Below are positions 1-20,874 of a stretch of DNA of 64,000 nt, piece after piece. The notes beneath the pieces are model-generated. The model searched no databases. It saw only the letters and a program-made list of their open reading frames with translations, and was not told the origin of the DNA. The translations under genes were made by a program, and so were the position numbers. The stretch is from Escherichia coli (GTDB taxonomy: Bacteria > Pseudomonadota > Gammaproteobacteria > Enterobacterales > Enterobacteriaceae). The stretch lies in NCBI RefSeq assembly GCF_003334785.1, contig NZ_QOWV01000015.1; one strand, given 5' to 3'. Numbering within the stretch: the first letter of the stretch is position 1; each line of letters begins with the position of its first letter.

Positions 1-241
1 AGAAAATATCCGGCGGGTTCCGGAGCGCCAGTCTGTAGGTTTATCCATCAATAGAACTCCGTCTAATTTAGAAGGAGCTCTAATTTAGTCTGCAAGGAGC
101 AGGTGTTACAGACGGCATTGGCTTTACGCTTACAGACCGGGTTATGCAGCCACGCGTAGAACCCGGCCCGGGCGACATCCAGTACCCGACACATTGTCAT
201 CACACCCCATACAGTGCGGTGCTCATTGATAAAGCGGTACT

Positions 242-526
242 TCAGTAGGGCTCCCTTGCAAAGTACCGCGCGGCCTTTTTCAGGATATCCCGTTCTTCTT
301 CGGTACGTTTTAGCTGCGCCCGTAGTTTCAGGATCTCGCTTTTGGCTTCCAGTAAATCCCGGGCATGCTGCTCGCTGTTATCCGGTTTGATAGCCCGTAG
401 CCACTTGTAGAGGCTGTGGGCAGAAACGCCCAGACGGTGAGATACTTCGGCAACGGAATAACCGCGTTCCGTTATCTGTCGGACGGCTTCTTCCTTAAAT
501 TCAGGTGTAAATCGTGGTGTGCTCAT
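242..526 (-). mobile_element. IS3-family transposase OrfA (helix-turn-helix N-terminal ORF, 94 aa); downstream orfB appears disrupted
   Basis: Translation has the typical IS3-family OrfA architecture (HTH then leucine-zipper-like C-terminus ending KKAARYFA). Reverse complement of ~130-241 encodes an OrfB-like N-terminus (KYRFINEHRTVWGVMTMCRVLDVARAGFYAW) that hits stops in all frames near position ~75-115. Confidence 0.75.
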
Positions 527-809
527 ATGCTCCCCCCTATACTCAAACTATAGGGCAGGATCGTCTACCGGGGTGGGGTCAGTCCATTACTAACTGACAG
601 TTGTACCGAATACTGGGGGCAGGTCAAGCGCTTTAGCTTGTGTGGCAACAACCTCCTTTACAGGACCAGGTAGACGATTACCCTCTGCTGTTTCTGTGCT
701 CAACGCAATCTACGGCTATCCATTTTCTGCCAGTGGTTGCAAAGACGACCATTCAACGTCAGCAAAGTTTCGCAATGCACTGCTATGTAACTCATTGATC
801 CTACGTAGA

Positions 810-865
810 ATTTAAAATCCCTCGGCGTTCGCGCTGTGCGGGTTCAAGTCCCGCTCCGGGTACCA
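810..865 (+). other. 3' fragment (anticodon loop to CCA end, ~56 nt) of tRNA-Leu(UAA), leuZ-type; probable attachment-site remnant
   Basis: Sequence atttaaaatccctcggcgttcgcgctgtgcgggttcaagtcccgctccgggtacca matches the 3' part of E. coli leuZ as I recall it; the preceding bases do not form the tRNA 5' half. Confidence 0.75.
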
Positions 866-908
866 TGGGAAAGATAAGAATAAAATCAAAGCAATAAGCA
901 GTGTCGTG

Positions 909-933
909 AAACCACCTTCGGGTGGTTTTTTTG
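909..933 (+). terminator. Rho-independent terminator (original tRNA operon terminator)
   Basis: GC hairpin accacc-ttcg-ggtggt followed by a T7 run. Confidence 0.7.
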
Positions 934-1060
934 TGCCTGCAACTTGTCGTTACACTCTCCTTAATTTTTAATCACCAGCAAAGCCACTCAAAAAGTATCT
1001 CTGATACGGACCGGCATGTAAGATAGGTGCTGGCGAGTTGAGATCCACAAGGAAAAGCGT

Positions 1061-1726
1061 ATGAAAACGGGACCGTTAAACGAAAGTGAGTTGGAATGGC
1101 TGGACGATATTCTGACCAAATACAACACTGACCACGCCATCCTTGATGTGGCGGAGCTGGACGGTTTATTGACGGCGGTGTTGAGTTCTCCGCAAGAGAT
1201 TGAACCGGAACAGTGGCTGGTTGCCGTGTGGGGTGGGGCTGACTATGTGCCGCGCTGGGCGTCAGAGAAAGAGATGACGCGCTTTATGAATCTGGCTTTT
1301 CAACATATGGCCGATACCGCAGAGCGTCTGAACGAATTCCCGGAGCAGTTTGAGCCGTTATTCGGCTTGCGAGAAGTTGATGGCAGCGAGCTGACGATTG
1401 TTGAGGAGTGGTGCTTTGGCTATATGCGGGGCGTGGCACTTTCTGACTGGTCAACGTTGCCCGATTCGTTAAAACCAGCGCTGGAGGCGATTGCGCTGCA
1501 CGGTACTGAGGAAAACTTCGAGCGGGTAGAGAAAATGTCGCCAGAAGCGTTTGAAGAGAGCGTAGATGCCATTCGACTGGCGGCGCTTGATCTACATGCG
1601 TACTGGATGGCGCATCCGCAGGAAAAAGCTGTTCAGCAACCGATCAAAGCAGAAGAGAAACCGGGGCGTAACGATCCTTGCCCGTGCGGTAGTGGTAAGA
1701 AATTTAAGCAGTGCTGCCTGCATTAA
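1061..1726 (+). CDS. yecA: YecA, UPF0149/SEC-C motif metal-binding protein
   Basis: 221-aa ORF ending in the SEC-C Zn-finger motif [13 protein letters not shown]; position next to leuZ and tyrP as in K-12. Confidence 0.93.
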
Positions 1727-1787
1727 GAGGTCAAATTGGGTGTCAGCGTTAATTCTGGCACCCAATAAGGAATTTGAGGCTATCTGA

Positions 1788-2999
1788 TCACCCCACTTCT
1801 GGTAACAACCCTGCCGCAATCAAAAATTGCACGCCAATCACAGCAATACCACAGAGAAACACCACCACCAGCGCCGGACGACCACCTTTCACCCGGTAAC
1901 CCGCCTGAGGATTGTGCTTTCTGCTTTGCCAGGTCAACAGCGAAGGGATAATCAATGCCAGTACCGCCAGCGCCACACCGGCGTAACCCAGCGCCATCAC
2001 AAATCCTCGTGGATAAAACAGTGCAAACGCCAACGGCGGCAGAAAGGTAATTGCACCAGTTTGCAACCGTCCACCAACGGTATTTGAACGCTGAAATAAA
2101 TCAGCCAGATAATCAAATAAGCCTAACGCAACGCCGAGAAATGACGTGGCGAGGGCTAAATCAGCAAATAAATGCACTGCCAGCTCAACATGCGGAGAGG
2201 CCACCATTTCGCGTAATGCCTGTAACAGCCCGTTTAATCCGGCATGATTAGCCAGCAATCCCATAAAGGTTGTTGAATCAATGCTGCCAAGCGTTGCCAC
2301 CTGCCAGAAAATATATGCCACCAGGGGGATCGCACTACCGGTTATAAACACCCAGCGTAGCTTACGAACGTTGCCATCCATATAGCTGACAATACTCGGC
2401 ACGCTACCGTGAAAACCAAATGAGGTAAAAATCACCGGGATTGCTGACAGAGCCAGCCCCTGTTGCAACGGCAGGGTTAAAAGATTCACTTTGTGAATAT
2501 GCGGTAGCAGCAATACCAGCATCACCACCAGAAAAATAATTTTGGCGCTGAACAGAAAACGGTTAAATAAATCGACCAGCGATGTCCCGACACAAACCAC
2601 GCCACCGGCAACAAAAGTGAACAACAGCACGCCAGCGGTTGCCGACATTGAAATACCTGTCCAGTCGCTGATGCTGGAGGCCAACAATTCACCGGCACCG
2701 CTGATGTATGCCGCAGTCAGAGCATACATTAAGAACATCATACTGAAGCCCGTCAGCCATTGACCGTAGCGTCCCAGATAGCGTTTTGCCAGCGTGCCCA
2801 GACCGGTATCTGCCGGAACATGCTGGTACACCTCCAGCAGTAATAGCGCCGTGTAGCACATCAACGCCCAAAGCCCAATCAACAAGATTAACGTAACGCT
2901 AAAACCAACACCGGCCGCAGCCAGCGGCATTGCCAGCATGCCAGCGCCAATTGTGGTTCCCGCCACGATAAAAACACTTCCCAGGGTTCTGTTTTTCAC
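1788..2999 (-). CDS. tyrP: Tyrosine-specific transport protein TyrP
   Basis: 403-aa polytopic membrane ORF recognised as TyrP; conserved synteny. Confidence 0.93.
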
Positions 3000-3077
3000 G
3001 CTTTCTTCTGTCCTGACGATCTTTATGAGTGATATCTGCGGCGCAGGTTAAGGCATAACGGCTTCTTCGTCAAACCG

Positions 3078-3110
3078 ACGTTACATATGGTGTAAATATA
3101 AATGTACAAT
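3078..3110. promoter_or_regulatory. TyrR box(es) in the tyrP promoter
   Basis: tgtaaatataaatgtaca at 3091-3108 matches TGTAAA-N6-TTTACA with one mismatch; adjacent weaker half-sites. Confidence 0.6.
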
Positions 3111-3190
3111 AAAAAGCATTCAGTCCTGCGCTGGCGCAAAGTCTTCATAAGCGGCAATCGCTACGCTAGGCTTTTTTTTGAGGAGGAACG

Positions 3191-3430
3191 ATGGACTCTA
3201 TTCACGGTCATGAAGTGTTAAATATGATGATTGAATCAGGCGAGCAATATACGCATGCCAGTCTGGAAGCTGCGATTAAAGCGCGTTTTGGTGAACAGGC
3301 ACGTTTTCACACCTGCTCGGCAGAAGGGATGACAGCGGGAGAGCTGGTGGCGTTTCTGGCAGCAAAAGGCAAATTTATACCTTCAGAAGAAGGTTTTTCG
3401 ACCGATCAGAGTAAGATTTGCCGTCACTGA
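3191..3430 (+). CDS. yecH: Uncharacterised protein YecH
   Basis: 79-aa ORF recognised as YecH; position between tyrP and ftnA. Confidence 0.85.
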   Translation: MDSIHGHEVLNMMIESGEQYTHASLEAAIKARFGEQARFHTCSAEGMTAGELVAFLAAKGKFIPSEEGFSTDQSKICRH

Positions 3431-3432
3431 TT

Positions 3433-3460
3433 TGAAACGGCGGCAGAAACCTGCCGCCGG
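3433..3460. terminator. Bidirectional hairpin terminator between yecH and ftnA
   Basis: Inverted repeat cggcggcag-aaac-ctgccgccg between convergent genes. Confidence 0.6.
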
Positions 3461-3466
3461 AGAGCA

Positions 3467-3964
3467 TTAGTTTTGTGTGTCGAGGGTAGAGAGTTCTTTG
3501 TCGATAAAATACAGACCTTCGCCGCTTTTGCCTGCCAGGCTTAATTTATCAATAATCGATTTGAACAGTTTCTCTTCTTCATGCTGCTCAGAAACATACC
3601 ATTGCAGGAAATTAAATGTTGGGTAGTCCTGATTGGTCATTGCTGCATGAGCCAGTTCGTTAATTTTCTGGGTGATTAATTGTTCGTGTTTATAGGTTTC
3701 CTGGAATAATTCATCAAGTGAGGAATATTCAGCAAACGGAGATTCAACGGTATTAATACGCGGTAAATTGCCGGTATCAGTCAGATAATCAAACAGACGC
3801 TGCATATGCGTCATCTCTTCCTGGGCGTGACGGCGCAGGAACGCGGCAGCACCTTCGAAGGTATGATAGCTGCACCAGGCGCTCATTTGCTGATAAAGCA
3901 GTGAAGAGTACAGTTCCAGGTTCATCTGCTCATTAAGTTTTTCAATCATTTCTGGTTTCAGCAT
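3467..3964 (-). CDS. ftnA: Ferritin FtnA (iron storage)
   Basis: Translation [15 protein letters not shown]... (165 aa from the internal ATG of the 170-aa ORF) recognised as FtnA. Confidence 0.95.
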
Positions 3965-4135
3965 GATAGTGCTCCACAAAGGTTATATTTGTTGCTGTGG
4001 CGTCACTATAATTTGTTATTTTATTATTTGCAAAAGGTAAAATATAAACTTCAATTATTAAAAATACGAATGGGAATAAAACGCATTACCGCTATTTATT
4101 TAATCAGCGAAGATCCCCCTCGCTGATTAAAACAT

Positions 4136-4459
4136 TTAGAGAAAGACAGGGAAGGCGGAATGATGGCACTGATATGACAAAGTGAATTCCGTATTCAAAC
4201 ATAAGGAACCCGCAAAAAGGCTACAGTTGCCTACTGGCTGACCAAAGGGGATCGCGTGGGTATAGCCTTCCTGCTGGCATGCGCGATCGGCGATCCCGCG
4301 ACTGACATAATGATCGGTATGGGCATGCTGCAAAAAAGCCTGGTCATAAACCAACCGTACAATACCTGTTGCCGCGTCAACTTCGCTCACATGGGCCTGG
4401 CGAGTAACCGTACACCCCGCCAGCGTTATTAATGAAAGAGTCAGAATCAGAAGTCTCAT
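4136..4459 (-). CDS. yecR: Lipoprotein YecR
   Basis: 107-aa ORF with lipoprotein signal (LAGC lipobox); recognised as YecR. Confidence 0.88.
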   Translation of the reverse strand: MRLLILTLSLITLAGCTVTRQAHVSEVDAATGIVRLVYDQAFLQHAHTDHYVSRGIADRACQQEGYTHAIPFGQPVGNCSLFAGSLCLNTEFTLSYQCHHSAFPVFL

Positions 4460-4623
4460 GGTCCAGCCAGAAGAGTAAGAGAAAGCACTATTTTACGCGT
4501 TACAGCGCTGCGACAATGGCCGGAAAAGACGCCTGGCAGGCGCTATTTCTTGCCATCTGTAGGTGTCAGAAATGGGGGGGTTGTTTTTTGATTATCATTT
4601 TTATAACATTAAAGGGGTATTTA

Positions 4624-4639
4624 TGTGATTTGCATCACA
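4624..4639. promoter_or_regulatory. CRP binding site (azuC promoter)
   Basis: Perfect TGTGA-N6-TCACA (tgtgatttgcatcaca) about 90 bp upstream of the azuC start. Confidence 0.7.
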
Positions 4640-4721
4640 TAAAGATTGATTTTTGTGATGGTTGTCATATTATAAGCGCAAAGACAATAACACCTGTATA
4701 ACAAATGGTCGGAGTGCCGCG

Positions 4722-4808
4722 ATGAAACTGCGCAAAATCCTGAAAAGTATGTTCAATAACTATTGCAAGACGTTCAAAGACGTACCGCCAGGCAATATGT
4801 TCCGATAA
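4722..4808 (+). CDS. azuC: Small protein AzuC (28 aa)
   Basis: ORF translates to MKLRKILKSMFNNYCKTFKDVPPGNMFR, matching the AzuC small protein; too short for the supplied ORF track. Confidence 0.85.
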   Translation: MKLRKILKSMFNNYCKTFKDVPPGNMFR

Positions 4809-4810
4809 CA

Positions 4811-4838
4811 AAAAACCTGCTCCGGCAGGTTTTTTTGT
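4811..4838 (+). terminator. Rho-independent terminator after azuC
   Basis: Hairpin cctgctccgg-caggttt followed by a T-run. Confidence 0.7.
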
Positions 4839-4922
4839 GTCCTGATGACGGTGGATGTGACTATCGCTGAAGATGTGAAGTCGCTACTATAACGGCTTTC
4901 AAAATGCTATCAGGAGTTTACG

Positions 4923-5174
4923 ATGTCCCAGCCGCTGAATGCCGATCAGGAACTGGTTTCTGATGTGGTTGCTTGCCAGTTGGTTATCAAACAAATTCTG
5001 GATGTTCTCGATGTAATCGCGCCCGTTGAAGTTCGTGAAAAAATGTCCAGTCAGCTGAAGAATATCGACTTTAGTAACCATCCCGCCGCCGCAGACCCGG
5101 TCACCATGCGGGCAATCCAAAAAGCCATCGCGCTGATTGAACTCAAGTTTACCCCACAGGGTGAATCCCATTAA
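4923..5174 (+). CDS. yecJ: Uncharacterised protein YecJ (DUF2766)
   Basis: 83-aa ORF recognised as YecJ; followed by a hairpin terminator at ~5175-5210. Confidence 0.88.
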
Positions 5175-5252
5175 AAAAACCGCTGCTTCAAACAGATGAG
5201 GCAGCGGTTTCTCAAAACCTTCATCGGCGCAATGCATTAGCGCCGATGATGA

Positions 5253-5756
5253 TCAATGCAGCTGGTGTGACACGACATTCAGAACATGTTGGTCGGTCTG
5301 CACAGGGCACATACCCGCAAGTTTCGCACTGCGCACTTCATCAAGAATGGTTTGCAGCAACAGACCATCATGCTGCTGTTCTTTTTCCAGATCGCGCAGG
5401 AAATTGACGGTTGAATCATCATTCAGTTCTTTCGCTTCATCGGCTAACTGTGCCAACGTACTAGAACGTTGCTCGTATTCTTCCATCGTTTTTTGGAACA
5501 GTTCTTCCAGAGAGTTCAGTTTTTCACCGGGAACATCAATGGCTTTAACGATGGGGGTAGCGCCGACACTCTTCATAAAGTTAAACATGCGCATCATTTG
5601 GGTCACATTACTCTGTGCCTGGGCGCGAAGGAAAGTGGCGGTGCCGTTCAGACTCTGTTCAGAACACCAGTTACTCAGGTGAAGGTAGAGATTGGATGCG
5701 TAAAACTCGCGGTTCATTTGAGAGTTGAGTTTGAGAAGCATTCCAGCGGTTGCCAT
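5253..5756 (-). CDS. ftnB: Ferritin-like protein FtnB
   Basis: 167-aa ORF recognised as FtnB (YecI); ferritin fold. Confidence 0.92.
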
Positions 5757-6552
5757 ACCTAATATCCTTATATCCAGAAGTGGAGAGGTGCAAGATAAAT
5801 CAAAACACCATAATTACTGTTTGCAGAATAATTCCTTTCTGCCGGTCCGAAATGTGATCGTGGAGTCAATTCTGACGATGATCTGAAATAAGAATAACGT
5901 CTGAACGGGTATAAGAAAATGCTTAAATCATCAAGTTTATATATTTTTACATTTCATTGATGAAATCAATGTAACTGCAATGAATTTTAATGATAGTGCT
6001 TTTTGTATCTTGTTGATATTAATCAATGAATTTGAATTCATGATGAAATGATGATTTTATAAAAGGTTTTTTCATTTTTGCGAGATGGCTCTCATTATAC
6101 GTGTTCTGTTAATTAATGAGCACAGTGATAATTAATGGCGAAATGAATGGCGTGCATTTTCCACATCTTTGAGTTGCGGTTATTACACCATTTCAAAAAC
6201 TCAACGCCAGGTAATGCGGCCTATTGACTGGTTAAAAAGAAGACATCCCGCATGGGTACCAAAGACAACAAGGATTTCCAGGCTAATCTTATGGATTAAT
6301 CTGCTGTGCATTCGACAATTTGTCTGACAAATTGGCTTTCCCTTATGTCTTTTCCCGCTAAATTTATGCACGTTCTCACTGTAATTCTGCGATGTGATAT
6401 TGCTCTCCTATGGAGAATTAATTTCTCGCTAAAACTATGTCAACACGGTCACTTATCTTTTAGTTAAAAGGTAATGCTTTGTTTTCCGATTAATTTAACG
6501 AATGTCATTCGTTTTTGCCCTACACAAAACGACACTAAAGCTGGAGAGAACC

Positions 6553-7542
6553 ATGCACAAATTTACTAAAGCCCTGGCAGCCATTGGTCTGGCAGCCGTT
6601 ATGTCACAATCCGCTATGGCGGAGAACCTGAAGCTCGGTTTTCTGGTGAAGCAACCGGAAGAGCCGTGGTTCCAGACCGAATGGAAGTTTGCCGATAAAG
6701 CCGGGAAGGATTTAGGGTTTGAGGTTATTAAGATTGCCGTGCCGGATGGCGAAAAAACATTGAACGCGATCGACAGCCTGGCTGCCAGTGGCGCAAAAGG
6801 TTTCGTTATTTGTACTCCGGACCCCAAACTCGGCTCTGCCATCGTCGCGAAAGCGCGTGGCTACGATATGAAAGTCATTGCCGTGGATGACCAGTTTGTT
6901 AACGCCAAAGGTAAGCCAATGGATACCGTTCCGCTGGTGATGATGGCGGCGACTAAAATTGGCGAACGTCAGGGTCAGGAACTGTATAAAGAGATGCAGA
7001 AACGTGGCTGGGATGTCAAAGAAAGCGCGGTGATGGCGATTACCGCCAACGAACTGGATACGGCACGTCGCCGTACAACGGGTTCTATGGATGCGCTGAA
7101 AGCGGCCGGATTCCCGGAAAAACAAATTTATCAGGTACCTACCAAATCTAACGACATCCCGGGGGCATTTGACGCTGCCAACTCAATGCTGGTTCAACAT
7201 CCGGAAGTTAAACATTGGCTGATCGTCGGTATGAACGACAGCACCGTGCTGGGCGGCGTACGCGCGACGGAAGGTCAGGGCTTTAAAGCTGCCGATATCA
7301 TCGGCATTGGCATTAACGGTGTGGATGCGGTGAGCGAACTGTCTAAAGCACAGGCAACCGGCTTCTACGGTTCCCTGCTGCCAAGCCCGGACGTACATGG
7401 CTATAAATCCAGCGAAATGCTTTACAACTGGGTAGCAAAAGACGTTGAACCGCCAAAATTTACCGAAGTTACCGACGTGGTGCTGATCACGCGTGACAAC
7501 TTTAAAGAAGAACTGGAGAAAAAAGGTTTAGGCGGTAAGTAA
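6553..7542 (+). CDS. araF: L-arabinose ABC transporter periplasmic binding protein AraF
   Basis: Translation from MHKFTKALAAIGLAAVMSQSAMA (signal peptide) gives 329 aa recognised as AraF; RBS ggaga upstream. Confidence 0.96.
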   Translation: MHKFTKALAAIGLAAVMSQSAMAENLKLGFLVKQPEEPWFQTEWKFADKAGKDLGFEVIKIAVPDGEKTLNAIDSLAASGAKGFVICTPDPKLGSAIVAKARGYDMKVIAVDDQFVNAKGKPMDTVPLVMMAATKIGERQGQELYKEMQKRGWDVKESAVMAITANELDTARRRTTGSMDALKAAGFPEKQIYQVPTKSNDIPGAFDAANSMLVQHPEVKHWLIVGMNDSTVLGGVRATEGQGFKAADIIGIGINGVDAVSELSKAQATGFYGSLLPSPDVHGYKSSEMLYNWVAKDVEPPKFTEVTDVVLITRDNFKEELEKKGLGGK

Positions 7543-7611
7543 TTTGCCGGAAAAATTCCCCTCTGCATGATGCAGAGGGGGTGTGAACGACCAGTGATTC
7601 ACGGAGACGTT

Positions 7612-9126
7612 ATGCAACAGTCTACCCCGTATCTCTCATTTCGCGGCATCGGTAAAACGTTTCCCGGCGTTAAGGCGCTGACGGATATTAGTTTTGACTG
7701 CTATGCCGGTCAGGTTCATGCGTTGATGGGTGAAAATGGCGCAGGAAAATCAACTCTCTTAAAAATCCTCAGCGGCAACTATGCGCCAACCACGGGTTCT
7801 GTAGTGATTAATGGGCAGGAAATGTCCTTTTCCGACACGACCGCAGCACTTAACGCGGGTGTGGCGATTATTTACCAGGAACTGCATCTCGTGCCGGAAA
7901 TGACCGTCGCGGAAAACATCTATCTCGGCCAGCTGCCGCATAAAGGCGGCATTGTGAATCGCTCATTGCTGAATTATGAGGCGGGTTTACAACTTAAACA
8001 TCTTGGTATGGATATTGACCCGGACACGCCGCTGAAATATCTCTCCATTGGTCAGTGGCAGATGGTTGAAATCGCCAAGGCGCTGGCGCGTAACGCTAAA
8101 ATTATCGCCTTTGATGAGCCAACCAGCTCCCTTTCTGCCCGCGAAATCGACAATCTTTTCCGCGTTATTCGTGAACTGCGAAAAGAGGGGCGGGTGATCT
8201 TATACGTTTCTCACCGTATGGAAGAAATATTTGCCCTCAGCGATGCCATCACTGTCTTTAAAGATGGACGTTATGTCAAAACCTTTACCGATATGCAGCA
8301 GGTTGACCACGACGCGCTGGTGCAGGCGATGGTCGGGCGCGACATTGGCGATATCTACGGCTGGCAACCTCGTAGTTATGGCGAGGAGCGCCTGCGTCTT
8401 GATGCTGTGAAAGCACCAGGCGTGCGTACGCCAATAAGTCTGGCGGTTCGCAGTGGTGAAATTGTTGGGCTGTTTGGTCTGGTAGGGGCGGGGCGTAGCG
8501 AATTAATGAAAGGCTTGTTTGGCGGGACGCAAATCACCGCCGGTCAGGTTTATATCGACCAACAGCCGATCGATATTCGTAAACCGAGCCACGCCATTGC
8601 CGCAGGCATGATGCTCTGCCCGGAAGATCGCAAAGCGGAAGGCATTATTCCCGTGCACTCCGTTCGCGACAATATCAACATCAGTGCCAGACGTAAACAT
8701 GTGCTCGGCGGTTGTGTAATCAACAACGGTTGGGAAGAAAACAATGCCGATCACCACATTCGTTCGCTCAACATCAAAACGCCGGGCGCTGAGCAACTGA
8801 TCATGAATCTCTCAGGCGGAAATCAGCAAAAAGCCATTCTGGGCCGCTGGTTATCGGAAGAGATGAAGGTCATTTTGCTGGATGAACCTACGCGCGGCAT
8901 TGATGTTGGCGCTAAGCACGAAATATATAACGTAATTTATGCGCTGGCGGCGCAGGGTGTGGCGGTGCTGTTTGCCTCCAGCGACTTACCTGAAGTCCTC
9001 GGCGTTGCCGACCGGATTGTGGTGATGCGCGAAGGTGAAATCGCCGGTGAATTGTTACACGAGCAGGCAGATGAGCGTCAGGCACTGAGCCTTGCGATGC
9101 CTAAAGTCAGCCAGGCAGTTGCCTGA
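7612..9126 (+). CDS. araG: L-arabinose ABC transporter ATP-binding protein AraG
   Basis: [17 protein letters not shown]... with two ABC cassettes (Walker [10 protein letters not shown]); 504 aa. Confidence 0.96.
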
Positions 9127-9140
9127 GTAAGGAGAGTATG

Positions 9141-12493
<3,353 letters not shown>

Positions 12494-12499
12494 GAGCGG

Positions 12500-12928
12500 T
12501 TAATCTCCCGTAAGTGGAACTAACAGCACATCGACCTCACTTGAGGCAATCACTCTTTTCGCCGAGCAGGATGCTCGCGAAAAGAAACTGTGATTGTGAT
12601 TACCGCAAATCACCAAATCGAAATGATGTTTGTGACATACTTCCAGAATATGTTCGCTTAACTCACCGTAGGCAATAAACGTCTTGTCAACGGGATACCC
12701 CGCATCCTGAATTAACTTATCAAGAAAGCTTTGCGTTTCTTCCTGCATCACGCTGCGTAAATCTTCAAGCATCGGCGCGGCTAATTGATTGTACATTTCC
12801 GGGTCGGAAGCGAGAGTAATTAAACTGATGTGTCCCTTTACTGGCCTGGCGATAGATACCGCTTTTGCCAGCAGTTGCTGACTTTCCGGTGTAACCGCAA
12901 CAGCGACAAGAATATTGCTATAGCTCAT
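12500..12928 (-). CDS. uspC: Universal stress protein UspC
   Basis: 142-aa ORF recognised as UspC; convergent with otsA. Confidence 0.93.
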   Translation of the reverse strand: MSYSNILVAVAVTPESQQLLAKAVSIARPVKGHISLITLASDPEMYNQLAAPMLEDLRSVMQEETQSFLDKLIQDAGYPVDKTFIAYGELSEHILEVCHKHHFDLVICGNHNHSFFSRASCSAKRVIASSEVDVLLVPLTGD

Positions 12929-13429
12929 AACCTGTTCCTTATTCTGTGAACTTCAGGTGACATTAAAGCTTTACTCCTAATGGAGAAACGACGCAATCCC
13001 AACTCGGTCAAACAGGTAAATATTAGTCTGATTATTAGTAAAGACAATTAATCAATCACTCCCGGTGATCATATAATTTCAAATGTAATTATAAGAAAAT
13101 AGTGTACTGATTCTCCGCATTAAACAGTGGTTAATATATGCAAAACATTTTATTAACATTAAGTTGATTGTTGCCTTTCTTTGTATTTAATTAGTTTGTT
13201 GTGCGGTAAGTGTCTGTTTAAAAATAGCTTATCTGGTATTGCATGAAAGTGATTATTTATAGCAGATGATTATTTACGGTGTGTTATTTTAACTGTGCGC
13301 AACATCCCATTTCGATTATTCCTGTTTCATTTTTGCTTGCTAGCGTAGCGAAAAACTTTTTAACAGATTGAAATACACCCAAAACAAAAGTATGGCTTAT
13401 GCATTTATGTTAAGTAATTGAGTGTTTTG

Positions 13430-13445
13430 TGTGATCTGCATCACA
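13430..13445. promoter_or_regulatory. CRP binding site of the flhDC promoter
   Basis: tgtgatctgcatcaca is a perfect TGTGA-N6-TCACA, ~260 bp upstream of flhD in an AT-rich regulatory region. Confidence 0.75.
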
Positions 13446-13706
13446 TATTATTGAAAATCGCAGCCCCCCTCCGTTGTATGTGCGTGTAGTGACGAGTACA
13501 GTTGCGTCGATTTAGGAAAAATCTTAGATAAGTGTAAAGACCCCCTTCTATTTGTAAGGACTTATTAAACCAAAAAGGTGGCTCTGCTTATTGCAGCTTA
13601 TCGCAACTATTCTAATGCTAATTATTTTTTGCCGGGGCTTCCCGGCGACATCACGGGGTGCGGTGAAACCGCATAAAAATAAAGTTGGTTATTCTGGGTG
13701 GGAATC

Positions 13707-14057
13707 ATGCATACCTCCGAGTTGCTGAAACACATTTATGACATCAACTTGTCATATTTACTACTTGCACAGCGTTTGATTGTTCAGGACAAAGCGTCCG
13801 CTATGTTTCGTCTCGGCATAAATGAAGAAATGGCGACAACGTTAGCGGCACTGACTCTTCCGCAAATGGTTAAGCTGGCAGAAACCAATCAACTGGTTTG
13901 TCACTTTCGTTTTGACAGCCACCAGACGATTACTCAGTTGACGCAAGATTCCCGCGTTGACGATCTCCAGCAAATTCATACCGGCATCATGCTCTCAACA
14001 CGCTTGCTGAATGATGTTAATCAGCCTGAAGAAGCGCTGCGCAAGAAAAGGGCCTGA
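13707..14057 (+). CDS. flhD: Flagellar master regulator subunit FlhD
   Basis: [24 protein letters not shown]... (116 aa); an in-frame GTG at 13698 would add 3 residues. Confidence 0.96.
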
Positions 14058-14059
14058 TC

Positions 14060-14638
14060 ATGAGTGAAAAAAGCATTGTTCAGGAAGCACGGGATATTCA
14101 GCTGGCAATGGAATTGATCACCCTGGGCGCTCGTTTGCAGATGCTGGAAAGCGAAACACAGTTAAGTCGCGGACGCCTGATAAAACTTTATAAAGAACTG
14201 CGCGGAAGCCCACCGCCGAAAGGCATGCTGCCATTCTCAACCGACTGGTTTATGACCTGGGAACAAAACGTTCATGCTTCGATGTTCTGTAATGCATGGC
14301 AGTTTTTACTGAAAACCGGTTTGTGTGATGGCGTCGATGCGGTGATCAAAGCCTACCGTTTATACCTTGAACAGTGCCCACAAGCAGAAGAAGGACCACT
14401 GCTGGCATTAACCCGTGCCTGGACATTGGTGCGGTTTGTTGAAAGTGGATTACTGCAACTTTCCAGCTGCAACTGCTGCGGCGGCAATTTTATTACCCAC
14501 GCTCACCAGCCTGTTGGCAGCTTTGCCTGCAGCTTATGTCAACCGCCATCCCGGGCAGTAAAAAGACGTAAACTTTCCCAGAATCCTGCCGATATTATCC
14601 CACAACTGCTGGATGAACAGAGAGTACAGGCTGTTTAA
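14060..14638 (+). CDS. flhC: Flagellar master regulator subunit FlhC
   Basis: 192-aa ORF with the Cys cluster (CNCCGG...CSLC) typical of FlhC. Confidence 0.96.
14569..14595 (+). promoter_or_regulatory. Sigma-28 (FliA) class III promoter for motA operon / MotR leader
   Basis: TAAACTTT-N11-GCCGATAT closely matches the FliA consensus TAAAGTTT-N11-GCCGATAA; lies inside the flhC 3' end. Confidence 0.65.
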
Positions 14639-14662
14639 CTGATACGGTGTGGTGCAACATTC

Positions 14663-14697
14663 CAGCAGCGGTAACGACGTACCGCTGCTTTTTTTTG
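14663..14697 (+). terminator. Hairpin terminator after flhC, in the motA 5' leader
   Basis: cagcagcggtaacgacgtaccgctgc followed by a T8 run. Confidence 0.7.
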
Positions 14698-14764
14698 CCC
14701 CAATCGCGCGTTAACGCCTGACGACTGAACATCCTGTCATGGTCAACAGTGGAAGGATGATGTC

Positions 14765-15648
14765 GTGCTTATCTTATTAGGTTACCTGGTTGTTCTCGGT
14801 ACAGTTTTCGGCGGTTATTTGATGACCGGTGGAAGCCTTGGAGCACTCTATCAACCCGCTGAACTGGTGATTATTGCCGGTGCAGGGATTGGGTCGTTTA
14901 TCGTCGGCAATAATGGCAAAGCGATTAAAGGCACGCTGAAGGCGCTGCCGTTGCTGTTTCGTCGCTCCAAATACACCAAAGCAATGTATATGGATCTGCT
15001 GGCTCTGCTTTATCGGTTGATGGCGAAATCGCGGCAGATGGGGATGTTTTCGCTGGAACGTGATATTGAAAATCCCCGTGAGAGCGAGATCTTCGCCAGC
15101 TACCCACGCATTCTCGCGGATAGCGTCATGCTTGATTTTATCGTCGATTATCTGCGCCTGATTATCAGCGGTCACATGAACACCTTCGAAATCGAAGCCC
15201 TGATGGATGAAGAGATTGAGACGCACGCAAGCGAGGCAGAAGTCCCGGCGAACAGTCTGGCGCTGGTCGGGGACTCACTTCCGGCGTTTGGTATTGTCGC
15301 GGCTGTAATGGGGGTCGTTCACGCGTTAGGTTCAGCCGATCGTCCTGCCGCCGAGCTGGGGGCGCTTATCGCACATGCGATGGTGGGGACTTTCCTCGGC
15401 ATTTTATTGGCTTACGGATTTATTTCCCCATTAGCGAGTGTTTTACGTCAGAAAAGCGCCGAAACCAGCAAAATGATGCAGTGCGTCAAAGTCACTCTGC
15501 TTTCTAATCTGAACGGTTACGCACCGCCTATCGCCGTTGAGTTTGGTCGCAAAACGCTCTATTCCAGCGAACGTCCGTCGTTTATTGAACTGGAAGAGCA
15601 TGTGCGTGCGGTGAAAAATCCGCAACAACAGACGACAACCGAGGAAGC

Positions 15649-15652
<4 letters not shown>
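14765..15652 (+). CDS. motA: Flagellar motor stator protein MotA
   Basis: GTG start; [20 protein letters not shown]... 295 aa. Confidence 0.96.
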
Positions 15653-18544
<2,892 letters not shown>

Positions 18545-18564
18545 ATGAGTAAAAAGGTAACAAT

Positions 18565-19068
18565 ATGACCGGTATGACGAATGTAACAAAGCTGGCCAGC
18601 GAGCCGTCAGGCCAGGAATTTCTGGTATTTACCCTTGGTGATGAAGAGTACGGTATTGATATCCTGAAAGTGCAGGAGATCCGTGGCTACGATCAGGTAA
18701 CACGGATTGCGAACACGCCAGCGTTTATCAAAGGCGTCACGAATCTGCGCGGCGTTATTGTGCCGATTGTTGACTTACGAATTAAGTTCAGCCAGGTGGA
18801 TGTGGACTATAACGACAACACGGTAGTTATCGTCCTGAATCTCGGACAGCGGGTGGTCGGCATCGTGGTTGACGGCGTCTCAGACGTGCTTTCATTGACG
18901 GCGGAGCAAATTCGTCCGGCACCGGAATTTGCCGTGACGCTTTCAACAGAATATCTCACTGGACTGGGCGCACTGGGCGACCGGATGTTGATTCTGGTGA
19001 ACATCGAAAAACTGCTGAACAGCGAAGAGATGGCGCTGTTAGATAGCGCGGCGTCAGAAGTGGCGTAA
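18565..19068 (+). CDS. cheW: Chemotaxis coupling protein CheW
   Basis: 167-aa ORF recognised as CheW. Confidence 0.96.
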
Positions 19069-19095
19069 TTCTCCCGATTTCCTCAATTGAAATGA

Positions 19096-19125
19096 ACCCG
19101 ATGATCTGCGCATCGGGTTTTTTAT
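19096..19125 (+). terminator. Rho-independent terminator after cheW
   Basis: Hairpin cccgatg-atctgcg-catcggg followed by a T-run. Confidence 0.7.
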
Positions 19126-19154
19126 TTCAATTTCGCGGCGGGTGGCATCAGCAA

Positions 19155-19181
19155 TAAAGTTTCCCCCCTTCTTGCCGATAA
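19155..19181 (+). promoter_or_regulatory. Sigma-28 (FliA) promoter of the tar-tap-cheRBYZ operon
   Basis: TAAAGTTT-N11-GCCGATAA, an exact consensus match, 32 bp upstream of the tar start. Confidence 0.85.
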
Positions 19182-19212
19182 CGAGATCAACTTGTTTTCA
19201 GGAAGGTGCCTT

Positions 19213-20874
19213 ATGATTAACCGTATCCGCGTAGTCACGCTGTTGGTAATGGTGCTGGGGGTATTCGCACTGTTACAGCTTATTTCCGGCAGTCTGTTTT
19301 TTTCTTCCCTTCACCATAGCCAGAAGAGTTTTGTGGTTTCCAATCAATTACGGGAACAGCAGGGCGAGCTGACGTCAACCTGGGATTTAATGCTGCAAAC
19401 GCGCATTAACCTGAGTCGTTCAGCGGTGCGGATGATGATGGATTCCTCCAATCAACAAAGTAACGCCAAAGTTGAATTGCTCGATAGCGCCAGGAAAACA
19501 TTGGCGCAGGCAGCGACGCATTATAAAAAATTCAAAAGAATGGCACCGTTACCTGAAATGGTCGCTACCAGTCGTAATATTGATGAAAAATATAAAAACT
19601 ATTACACAGCGTTAACTGAACTGATTGATTATCTAGATTATGGCAATACTGGAGCTTATTTCGCTCAGCCAACCCAGGGAATGCAAAATGCAATGGGCGA
19701 AGCGTTTGCTCAGTACGCCCTCAGCAGTGAAAAACTGTATCGCGATATCGTCACTGACAACGCAGATGATTACCGATTTGCCCAGTGGCAACTGGCGGTT
19801 ATCGCGCTGGTGGTGGTATTGATTCTGCTGGTGGCGTGGTACGGCATTCGCCGTATGTTGCTTACTCCGCTGGCAAAAATTATTGCTCACATTCGCGAAA
19901 TCGCCGGTGGTAACCTGGCGAATACCCTGACCATTGACGGGCGCAGTGAAATGGGCGACCTGGCGCAGAGCGTTTCACATATGCAACGCTCTTTGACTGA
20001 CACCGTCACTCATGTCCGCGAAGGTTCAGATGCCATCTATGCCGGTACCCGTGAAATTGCGGCGGGCAACACCGATCTTTCCTCCCGTACTGAACAGCAG
20101 GCATCCGCGCTGGAAGAAACTGCCGCCAGCATGGAGCAGCTCACCGCGACAGTGAAGCAAAACGCCGATAACGCCCGCCAGGCCTCGCAACTGGCTCAAA
20201 GTGCCTCCGACACCGCCCAGCACGGCGGCAAAGTGGTGGATGGCGTAGTGAAAACGATGCATGAGATCGCCGATAGTTCGAAGAAAATTGCCGACATTAT
20301 CAGCGTTATCGACGGTATTGCCTTCCAGACTAATATCCTCGCGCTGAATGCCGCGGTTGAAGCCGCGCGTGCGGGTGAACAGGGCCGTGGTTTTGCCGTG
20401 GTGGCGGGTGAAGTGCGTAATCTTGCCAGTCGCAGCGCCCAGGCGGCAAAAGAGATCAAAGCCCTCATTGAAGACTCCGTCGCACGCGTTGATACCGGTT
20501 CGGTGCTGGTCGAAAGCGCCGGGGAAACAATGAACAATATCGTCAATGCTGTCACTCGCGTGACTGACATTATGGGCGAGATTGCATCGGCATCGGATGA
20601 ACAGAGCCGTGGCATCGATCAAGTCGCATTGGCGGTTTCGGAAATGGATCGCGTCACGCAACAGAACGCATCGCTGGTGCAGGAATCAGCTGCCGCCGCC
20701 GCTGCGCTGGAAGAACAGGCGAGTCGTTTAACGCAAGCGGTTTCCGCGTTCCGTCTGGCAGCCAGCCCACTCACCAATAAACCGCAAACACCATCCCGTC
20801 CTGCCAGTGAGCAACCACCGGCACAGCCACGACTGCGAATTGCTGAACAAGATCCAAACTGGGAAACATTTTGA
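19213..20874 (+). CDS. tar: Methyl-accepting chemotaxis protein II Tar (aspartate/maltose)
   Basis: [22 protein letters not shown]... 553 aa, HAMP and MCP signalling domains, C-terminal NWETF pentapeptide. Confidence 0.96.

Follow-up and report, generated by a model that had tools for sequence, protein, structure and literature searches.

The 3' fragment of leuZ at the left edge of the 64-kb stretch of E. coli DNA analysed here (the window) is very probably the attR of a leuZ-integrated island of the family found in strains 13C1065T, WCHEC050613 and 203740. As such, the scar is an ordinary E. coli island feature of a kind that has been described before. For annotation purposes, the left edge of the window falls just within a leuZ island, and the relatives of this island encode anti-phage systems, namely Hhe, a type I R-M system and a pair of DUF262 proteins. 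The direct repeat left by the insertion extends well beyond the tRNA sequence and takes in the entire sRNA sponge 3'ETS-leuZ. Coordinates of all features are collected in Table 1.

Table 1. Features at the left edge of the window, in window coordinates
Feature	Position	Strand	Basis
IS66-family element, left end; terminal repeat GTAAGCGTAAAGCC... from 133, tnpA ATG at 48	1..133	-	99-100% identity to annotated elements
IS3-family element, left part; terminal inverted repeat 587-626 (TGACCTGCCCCC... from 626), orfA 242-526, start of orfB	134..626	-	
Right arm of the leuZ island, non-coding, beside attR	627..809	.	Missing from the K-12 empty site; present in many island genomes
leuZ', 3' 56 nt of tRNA-Leu(UAA), starting at the final base of the 5' anticodon stem and ending with CCA; tRNA part of attR	810..865	+	Exact match to K-12
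Full attR copy of the direct repeat common to the attL of related islands	810..948	+	Alignments with the attL of SCEC020023 and 13C1065T
Native chromosomal 3'ETS-leuZ sRNA and operon terminator (hairpin 908-929, U-run to 932)	866..932	+	Identical to K-12 b4759; RNA fold
yecA, first core chromosomal gene past the island	1061..1726	+	ORF; annotated yecA in all matching genomes

The leuZ fragment and the extent of the direct repeat

The leuZ' sequence (ATTTAAAATCCCTCGGCGTTCGCGCTGTGCGGGTTCAAGTCCCGCTCCGGGTACCA) was identified by exact-pattern search and by alignment as the last 56 nt of K-12 leuZ (b1909, tRNA-Leu(UAA)), where it forms the 3' end of the annotated gene. There is no mismatch, and a perfect match of 56 nt cannot be chance. 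The 56-mer occurs once in the window when both strands are checked. Identity with K-12 begins at the final base of the 5' anticodon stem, and the bases preceding position 810 (ctacgtaga; ...gatcctacgtaga) are unrelated to the 5' half of the tRNA in the same alignment. ARAGORN made no tRNA call anywhere in the 64-kb window, and an Rfam search of positions 1-3000 at E<=1 gave no tRNA hit for the fragment. Its only two hits, STnc130 and sroD, fell in the region of the terminator, and we rejected them as sub-threshold chance hits. From the fragment onwards the sequence is chromosomal, with a single-base difference from K-12 (position 956) over window 810-1060. K-12 itself carries the empty site, in which leuZ is followed by its 3'ETS and by yecA, and the DNA on the inner side of the window junction is missing from that site. 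A truncated 3' copy of a tRNA gene, with its 5' half missing, thus stands at the junction between island and chromosome, as is characteristic of islands integrated at tRNA genes.

A preliminary description of this DNA, made from the sequence alone, had reported an exact copy of the leuZ 3' end that is not preceded by the tRNA 5' half and is followed by the native terminator and yecA; pattern search, alignment with K-12 and RNA folding bear out all of these observations. It had also read the fragment as the scar of an integrase-mediated insertion with the foreign DNA on the left, a reading supported by the absence of the arm from the K-12 site, and had proposed alignment to a genome with an unoccupied leuZ-yecA junction, for which K-12 serves, showing leuZ, 3'ETS and yecA with no insert. 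Its estimate of about 56 nt for the repeat was too short, as the repeat measures about 125-139 bp and runs through 3'ETS-leuZ and the terminator.

The length of the repeat is apparent from the other ends of related insertions. In SCEC020023 the attL and the native sequence agree perfectly over 125 nt, which reach from the anticodon loop across the terminator. The two ends of the 13C1065T island are homologous over about 139 nt at ~94% identity, and the six differences all lie downstream of the position equivalent to window 872. A K-12-like allele is present at the attR of the window, of 13C1065T and of O157, and a variant allele at the attL of 13C1065T, GZ2408P and GD33. The variant has a 2-nt deletion and one to three substitutions within the A-rich tract, and the terminator loop of some copies carries one change as well (attL copies compared: L002 23043-23107, L012, L013 and L007). 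This division beyond 872, with native alleles at attR and variant alleles at attL, is as expected from a crossover within the tRNA part of the repeat.

We propose that the island entered leuZ through site-specific recombination by a tyrosine integrase and that 810-948 represents the right-hand junction. The attP would have carried the 3' half of leuZ together with a 3' external transcribed spacer and terminator, in the order arm, core, island-borne 3'ETS and island left end, and the attB would have comprised leuZ, the native 3'ETS and yecA. The crossover would have fallen within the identical 63-nt block at 810-872; we infer its exact point, which was probably in the anticodon loop. The exchange may have taken place at this 7-nt loop, which is flanked by the imperfectly symmetric TAGAA/TCCCT, as the known behaviour of tRNA-targeting tyrosine integrases suggests; Williams reportedly distinguished, in 2002 (NAR), sublocation classes among tRNA-targeting integrases. 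An intact leuZ would have been rebuilt at attL with the 3' sequence borne by the island, and the chromosomal 3' half, 3'ETS-leuZ and terminator would have been left stranded at attR beside yecA. In the source genome, the right end has decayed further through entry of an IS66-family element into an IS3-family element.

Insertions of this general kind are common. The 126-nt repeat (810-935) is found at 7,105 places in 5,425 E. coli genomes and the 3'ETS part alone (866-935) at 7,098 places in the 5,425 genomes, which amounts to ~1,675 extra copies, essentially all of them with the sRNA and terminator. Two copies of the repeat were present in 10 of 40 and in 9 of 30 genomes taken as evenly spaced samples of the rankings. 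On these counts, leuZ is occupied by an insertion in roughly one quarter to 30% of the complete E. coli genomes.

The island family and the decay of its right end

In 13C1065T, the left end of the island runs from pgsA, glyW, cysT and an intact leuZ through a hypothetical gene to a 399-aa site-specific integrase. Past the integrase lie assorted genes, among them one for a second recombinase, then type I R-M genes that enclose a YecA-family gene, and an M48 peptidase gene. The right end is made up of two DUF262 genes, hhe, an IS3-family element interrupted by a group II intron, the arm and the leuZ fragment, after which yecA follows. The 56-mer occurs exactly twice in this 78-kb stretch, in the intact leuZ and on the yecA side, and the island between them spans ~35 kb. 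The WCHEC050613 island (20 kb) is composed of the integrase, IS1, type I R-M, M48, two DUF262 genes, hhe, an IS3 stub, the arm and the scar, so the arm here comes after hhe. The cargo of ETEC 203740 is the same, and its IS3-family element contains a nested ISCro1. The integrase seen in relatives is 399 aa in length, lies ~1 kb from the intact leuZ and consists of Arm-DNA-bind_3 and Phage_integrase domains, which is the architecture of P4-type island integrases. When the cargo of the relatives was searched with PADLOC, it yielded a full-length Hhe (4300 bits), REase_I, the candidate PDC-S12 and DUF262 proteins resembling GmrSD/HEC-06. Not all members are so complete: SCEC020023 retains a 4.3-kb remnant with IS1 from which the integrase has been lost. 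The attL junction of the island family is present, with >=80% of the query covered, in 533 genomes.

The PDC-S12 candidate (E=1.9e-98) is a 227-aa 'YecA family protein' encoded between hsdS and hsdR in the type I R-M operon of 13C1065T (L001 1929-2612). It is curious that a YecA-family gene is embedded in the R-M operon of an island that adjoins chromosomal yecA, and this may be a coincidence.

The window can be assigned to this family by its arm and by the IS3-family sequence next to it, both of which are common to the islands of 13C1065T, WCHEC050613 and 203740; the scar thus belongs to a common defence-island family at leuZ. Across window 134-1100, identity to the island ends of 203740 and 13C1065T amounts to 99.6-99.9%, and the value for the attR end of 13C1065T is 99.9%; in both islands the RefSeq annotation lists an IS3 family transposase pseudogene there. 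With window 585-830 as the query, at least 362 of the 5,426 complete E. coli genomes searched gave >=80% coverage, with the arm next to a leuZ fragment, and the arm is partly present in 603.

An 8-nt palindrome, CTACGTAG (801-808), lies immediately beside the att core. When the attR arm was compared with the attL arm of 13C1065T, only two 9-mers proved to be common to both, CTGTGCTCA and GCAATCTAC, which are colinear; ~1.3 would be expected by chance. We rejected a set of arm-type integrase repeats proposed from the common 9-mers (694-713), as their count is not above chance. CTACGTAG, CTGTGCTCA and GCAATCTAC could nonetheless be integrase or Xis binding sites.

A copy of the arm is also found away from any chromosome, on the 157-kb plasmid NZ_CP146666.1 (88475-88681; locus L009), which has ~200 bp of arm together with 11 nt from the start of the leuZ core. 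There the arm is joined to a different IS3-family element, and the base at which they meet is the one seen in the window; this suggests IS-associated capture of an island end.

The sequence to the left of the arm consists of two nested insertion elements. The product of the IS3 orfA matches NCBIfam transpos_IS3 (E=1.9e-15). The terminal repeat of the element starts TGACC..., and its orfB is cut after ~37 codons, which leaves the DDE domain and the second repeat outside the window. Its boundary at 626 is confirmed by the plasmid locus L009 in two respects: the junction of a related IS3-family element with this arm falls on the identical base, and the opposite terminal repeat of that element is matched by window 587-627. 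In WCHEC050613 the IS3 is reduced to a 115-bp stub that corresponds to window 512-626. The other element is assigned to the IS66 family by its terminal 133 bp, which include the start of tnpA. Window 1-133 matches the ends of tnpA-tnpB-tnpC elements of this family on many E. coli chromosomes and ETEC plasmids. Its end, GTAAGCG..., is at 133, and the body and second end extend past the window start. At the point where the window changes over to IS66 sequence, 13C1065T carries on in IS3 sequence, and the IS66-family element must therefore have inserted into IS3 orfB at 133/134. The IS3-family element has been hit independently three times, by the IS66-family element in the window, by ISCro1 in ETEC 203740 and by a group II intron in 13C1065T, and it is a recurrent landing pad for nested mobile elements (window 134-626; L001 16988-20393; L011 16551-20393).

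The IS66::IS3 junction could not be followed into other genomes. Megablast of 5,426 complete E. coli genomes returned no hit spanning 133/134, an exact pattern for 114-150 had no hit in GTDB species-representative genomes or JGI metagenome contigs, and nothing was recorded in a gene-position index for the junction ORF (63-203, minus strand) with any of three alternative starts. Over the core sequence (134-20000), the best island-bearing genomes reach 99.1% identity, and so there is no close relative to serve as a surrogate genome. The junction is absent from the collections searched, and the island body, the integrase and the intact leuZ of the source genome, which would lie on the far side of the IS66-family element, are inferred. 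In many strains this element is multicopy, at up to 22 places per genome, and the 133-bp IS end at position 1 looks to us, as an impression only, as though a short-read contig had been broken at a repeat. If that is true, the source assembly itself is not extendable leftward. The accessory genes would be reached at least ~3.4 kb past the window start, after the rest of the IS66-family element and then the rest of the IS3-family element.

Other origins for the scar have to be weighed against the same evidence. The attR could be a fossil, orphaned when IS-mediated deletion or inversion removed or relocated most of the island, integrase included, and would then no longer border a mobilisable element. 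Such a history would suit the heavy IS decay at the right end, with IS66 nested in IS3, and the abundance of the IS66-family element, whose copies are substrates for rearrangement; the resemblance of the window start to a contig break at a repeat would also fit. Stepwise decay is moreover seen among the relatives, as in the 115-bp IS3 stub of WCHEC050613 and the 4.3-kb SCEC020023 remnant with IS1 in place of the integrase. However, all three relatives examined that have both arm and IS3 (13C1065T, 203740 and WCHEC050613) carry hhe and the remaining cargo directly upstream, and the nested group II intron and ISCro1 have left colinearity intact in the genomes that carry them. We therefore regard an orphaned attR as unlikely, although it is the likeliest of the alternatives considered.

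Two further readings are refuted by the sequence between the IS end and the fragment, and we give them almost no credence. The tRNA 5' half might have been lost through a simple deletion or the insertion of the IS3-family element, whose end is nearby at 626, without any site-specific integration. The 183 bp that separate this end from the fragment are, however, conserved island arm and not glyW-cysT-leuZ operon sequence, and in 13C1065T, whose junction is the same, the opposite end of the island carries an intact leuZ together with an integrase. To our knowledge leuZ is the sole tRNA-Leu(UAA) gene in E. coli K-12, which makes its outright loss unlikely. This was the outcome that the preliminary description had named as fatal to its reading, and it is excluded; its expectation of accessory content fared less well within the window, where positions 1-866 hold no accessory gene and, to the left of the arm, only IS debris. 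It is just as hard to maintain that the leuZ element is a P2-like prophage of the sort found in O157:H7 and not a defence island. O157:H7 F6321 does have such a prophage at leuZ, with a 125-nt copy of the leuZ 3' half and 3'ETS on the yecA side, but the prophage integrase gene ends ~100 bp from attR, where the window has a 183-bp arm and IS3 instead, and this arm and IS3 are 99.9% identical to the 13C1065T island end. An island of the 13C1065T family accordingly remains the best explanation of the scar.

3'ETS-leuZ within the repeat

3'ETS-leuZ is released by RNase E processing and acts as a sponge for both RyhB and RybB; it binds the distal face of Hfq through its ARN repeats (bioRxiv 10.1101/2021.04.25.441314). 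Window 866-932 is identical to b4759 and includes the RyhB/RybB pairing stretch and the terminator. The K-12 and window copies are the same in sequence and differ in context: the window copy follows a truncated tRNA and, as judged from the arrangement, is now separated from the glyW-cysT-leuZ promoter. A consensus scan of window 500-1100 found no sigma-70-like promoter; the scan also missed the real terminator at 908-932, which RNA folding shows. Since the att repeat at leuZ includes the whole sponge, about one quarter of complete E. coli genomes have a second 3'ETS-leuZ copy that is off the operon promoter.

The expressed copy is affected as well. In island-bearing strains, the 3'ETS copy behind the intact leuZ is the allele of the element and should, from its position, be the one that is expressed. 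Elements that target leuZ and carry the whole sponge in their att repeat would in this way swap the expressed host allele for their own upon integration. The attL alleles borne by islands alter the ARN or A-rich Hfq tract and leave AATCAAAGCAATAAGCAGTGTCGTGAAA and the terminator stem invariant; the RyhB/RybB pairing stretch is likewise unaltered. Whole-molecule RNAduplex runs with K-12 RyhB and RybB gave near-equal energies whether the native 3'ETS allele or an island allele was the partner, and as RNAduplex ignores intramolecular structure, this result shows only that the pairing stretch is retained.

Any functional consequence of the island 3'ETS allele is speculative. The swap could change the buffering of RyhB and RybB in the ~10% of E. 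coli with the island family, or the orphan copy could be expressed through read-through from the island or an IS and supply a second dose; we consider it rather improbable that either occurs. A search for literature on 3'ETS-leuZ together with islands returned only reviews. The allele swap is the sole thread of this analysis that we regard as mildly novel.

Comparison with known elements at leuZ and other tRNA genes

leuZ is a published and frequently occupied integration site. Its described occupants are the 'leuZ-associated island' (Island 9) of APEC O78-9 (PMC4313913), an integrative element in STEC O145:H28 (PMC7067040) and prophages in O121:H19 (PMC8767318), and they also include small integrase-less remnants such as that of SCEC020023. 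Island 9 of APEC O78-9 and the O145:H28 element are likened to the window island by their insertion site. The likeness to the 20-35 kb islands of 13C1065T, WCHEC050613 and 203740 goes further, as the window has the same site, the same arm and the same orientation, with the integrase on the leuZ side and the scar on the yecA side; the IS66-family insertion at 133/134 sets the window apart from all 5,426 complete genomes searched.

The P2-like prophage of O157:H7 and STEC has the same tRNA target and a repeat of 125 nt that extends from the anticodon loop to the terminator. It differs from the island in being a phage, in having its integrase beside attR and in lacking homology to the arm at 627-809. 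In O157:H7 F6321 (L010), the copy of the repeat on the yecA side starts within 1 nt of the window position and ends at the same terminator. Because the repeats of prophage and island nearly coincide, unrelated integrases seem to use a near-identical and unusually long identity block.

Islands of the P4 type that target tRNA genes have the same identity block, which begins at the final base of the 5' anticodon stem and reaches the tRNA 3' end, and in them, as in the relatives of the leuZ island, the tRNA is rebuilt at attL beside the integrase. Classic PAIs have short att cores, shorter than the block of the leuZ island. In the leuZ island, by contrast, the block continues for ~70-80 nt past CCA, through the whole of the sRNA and its terminator.
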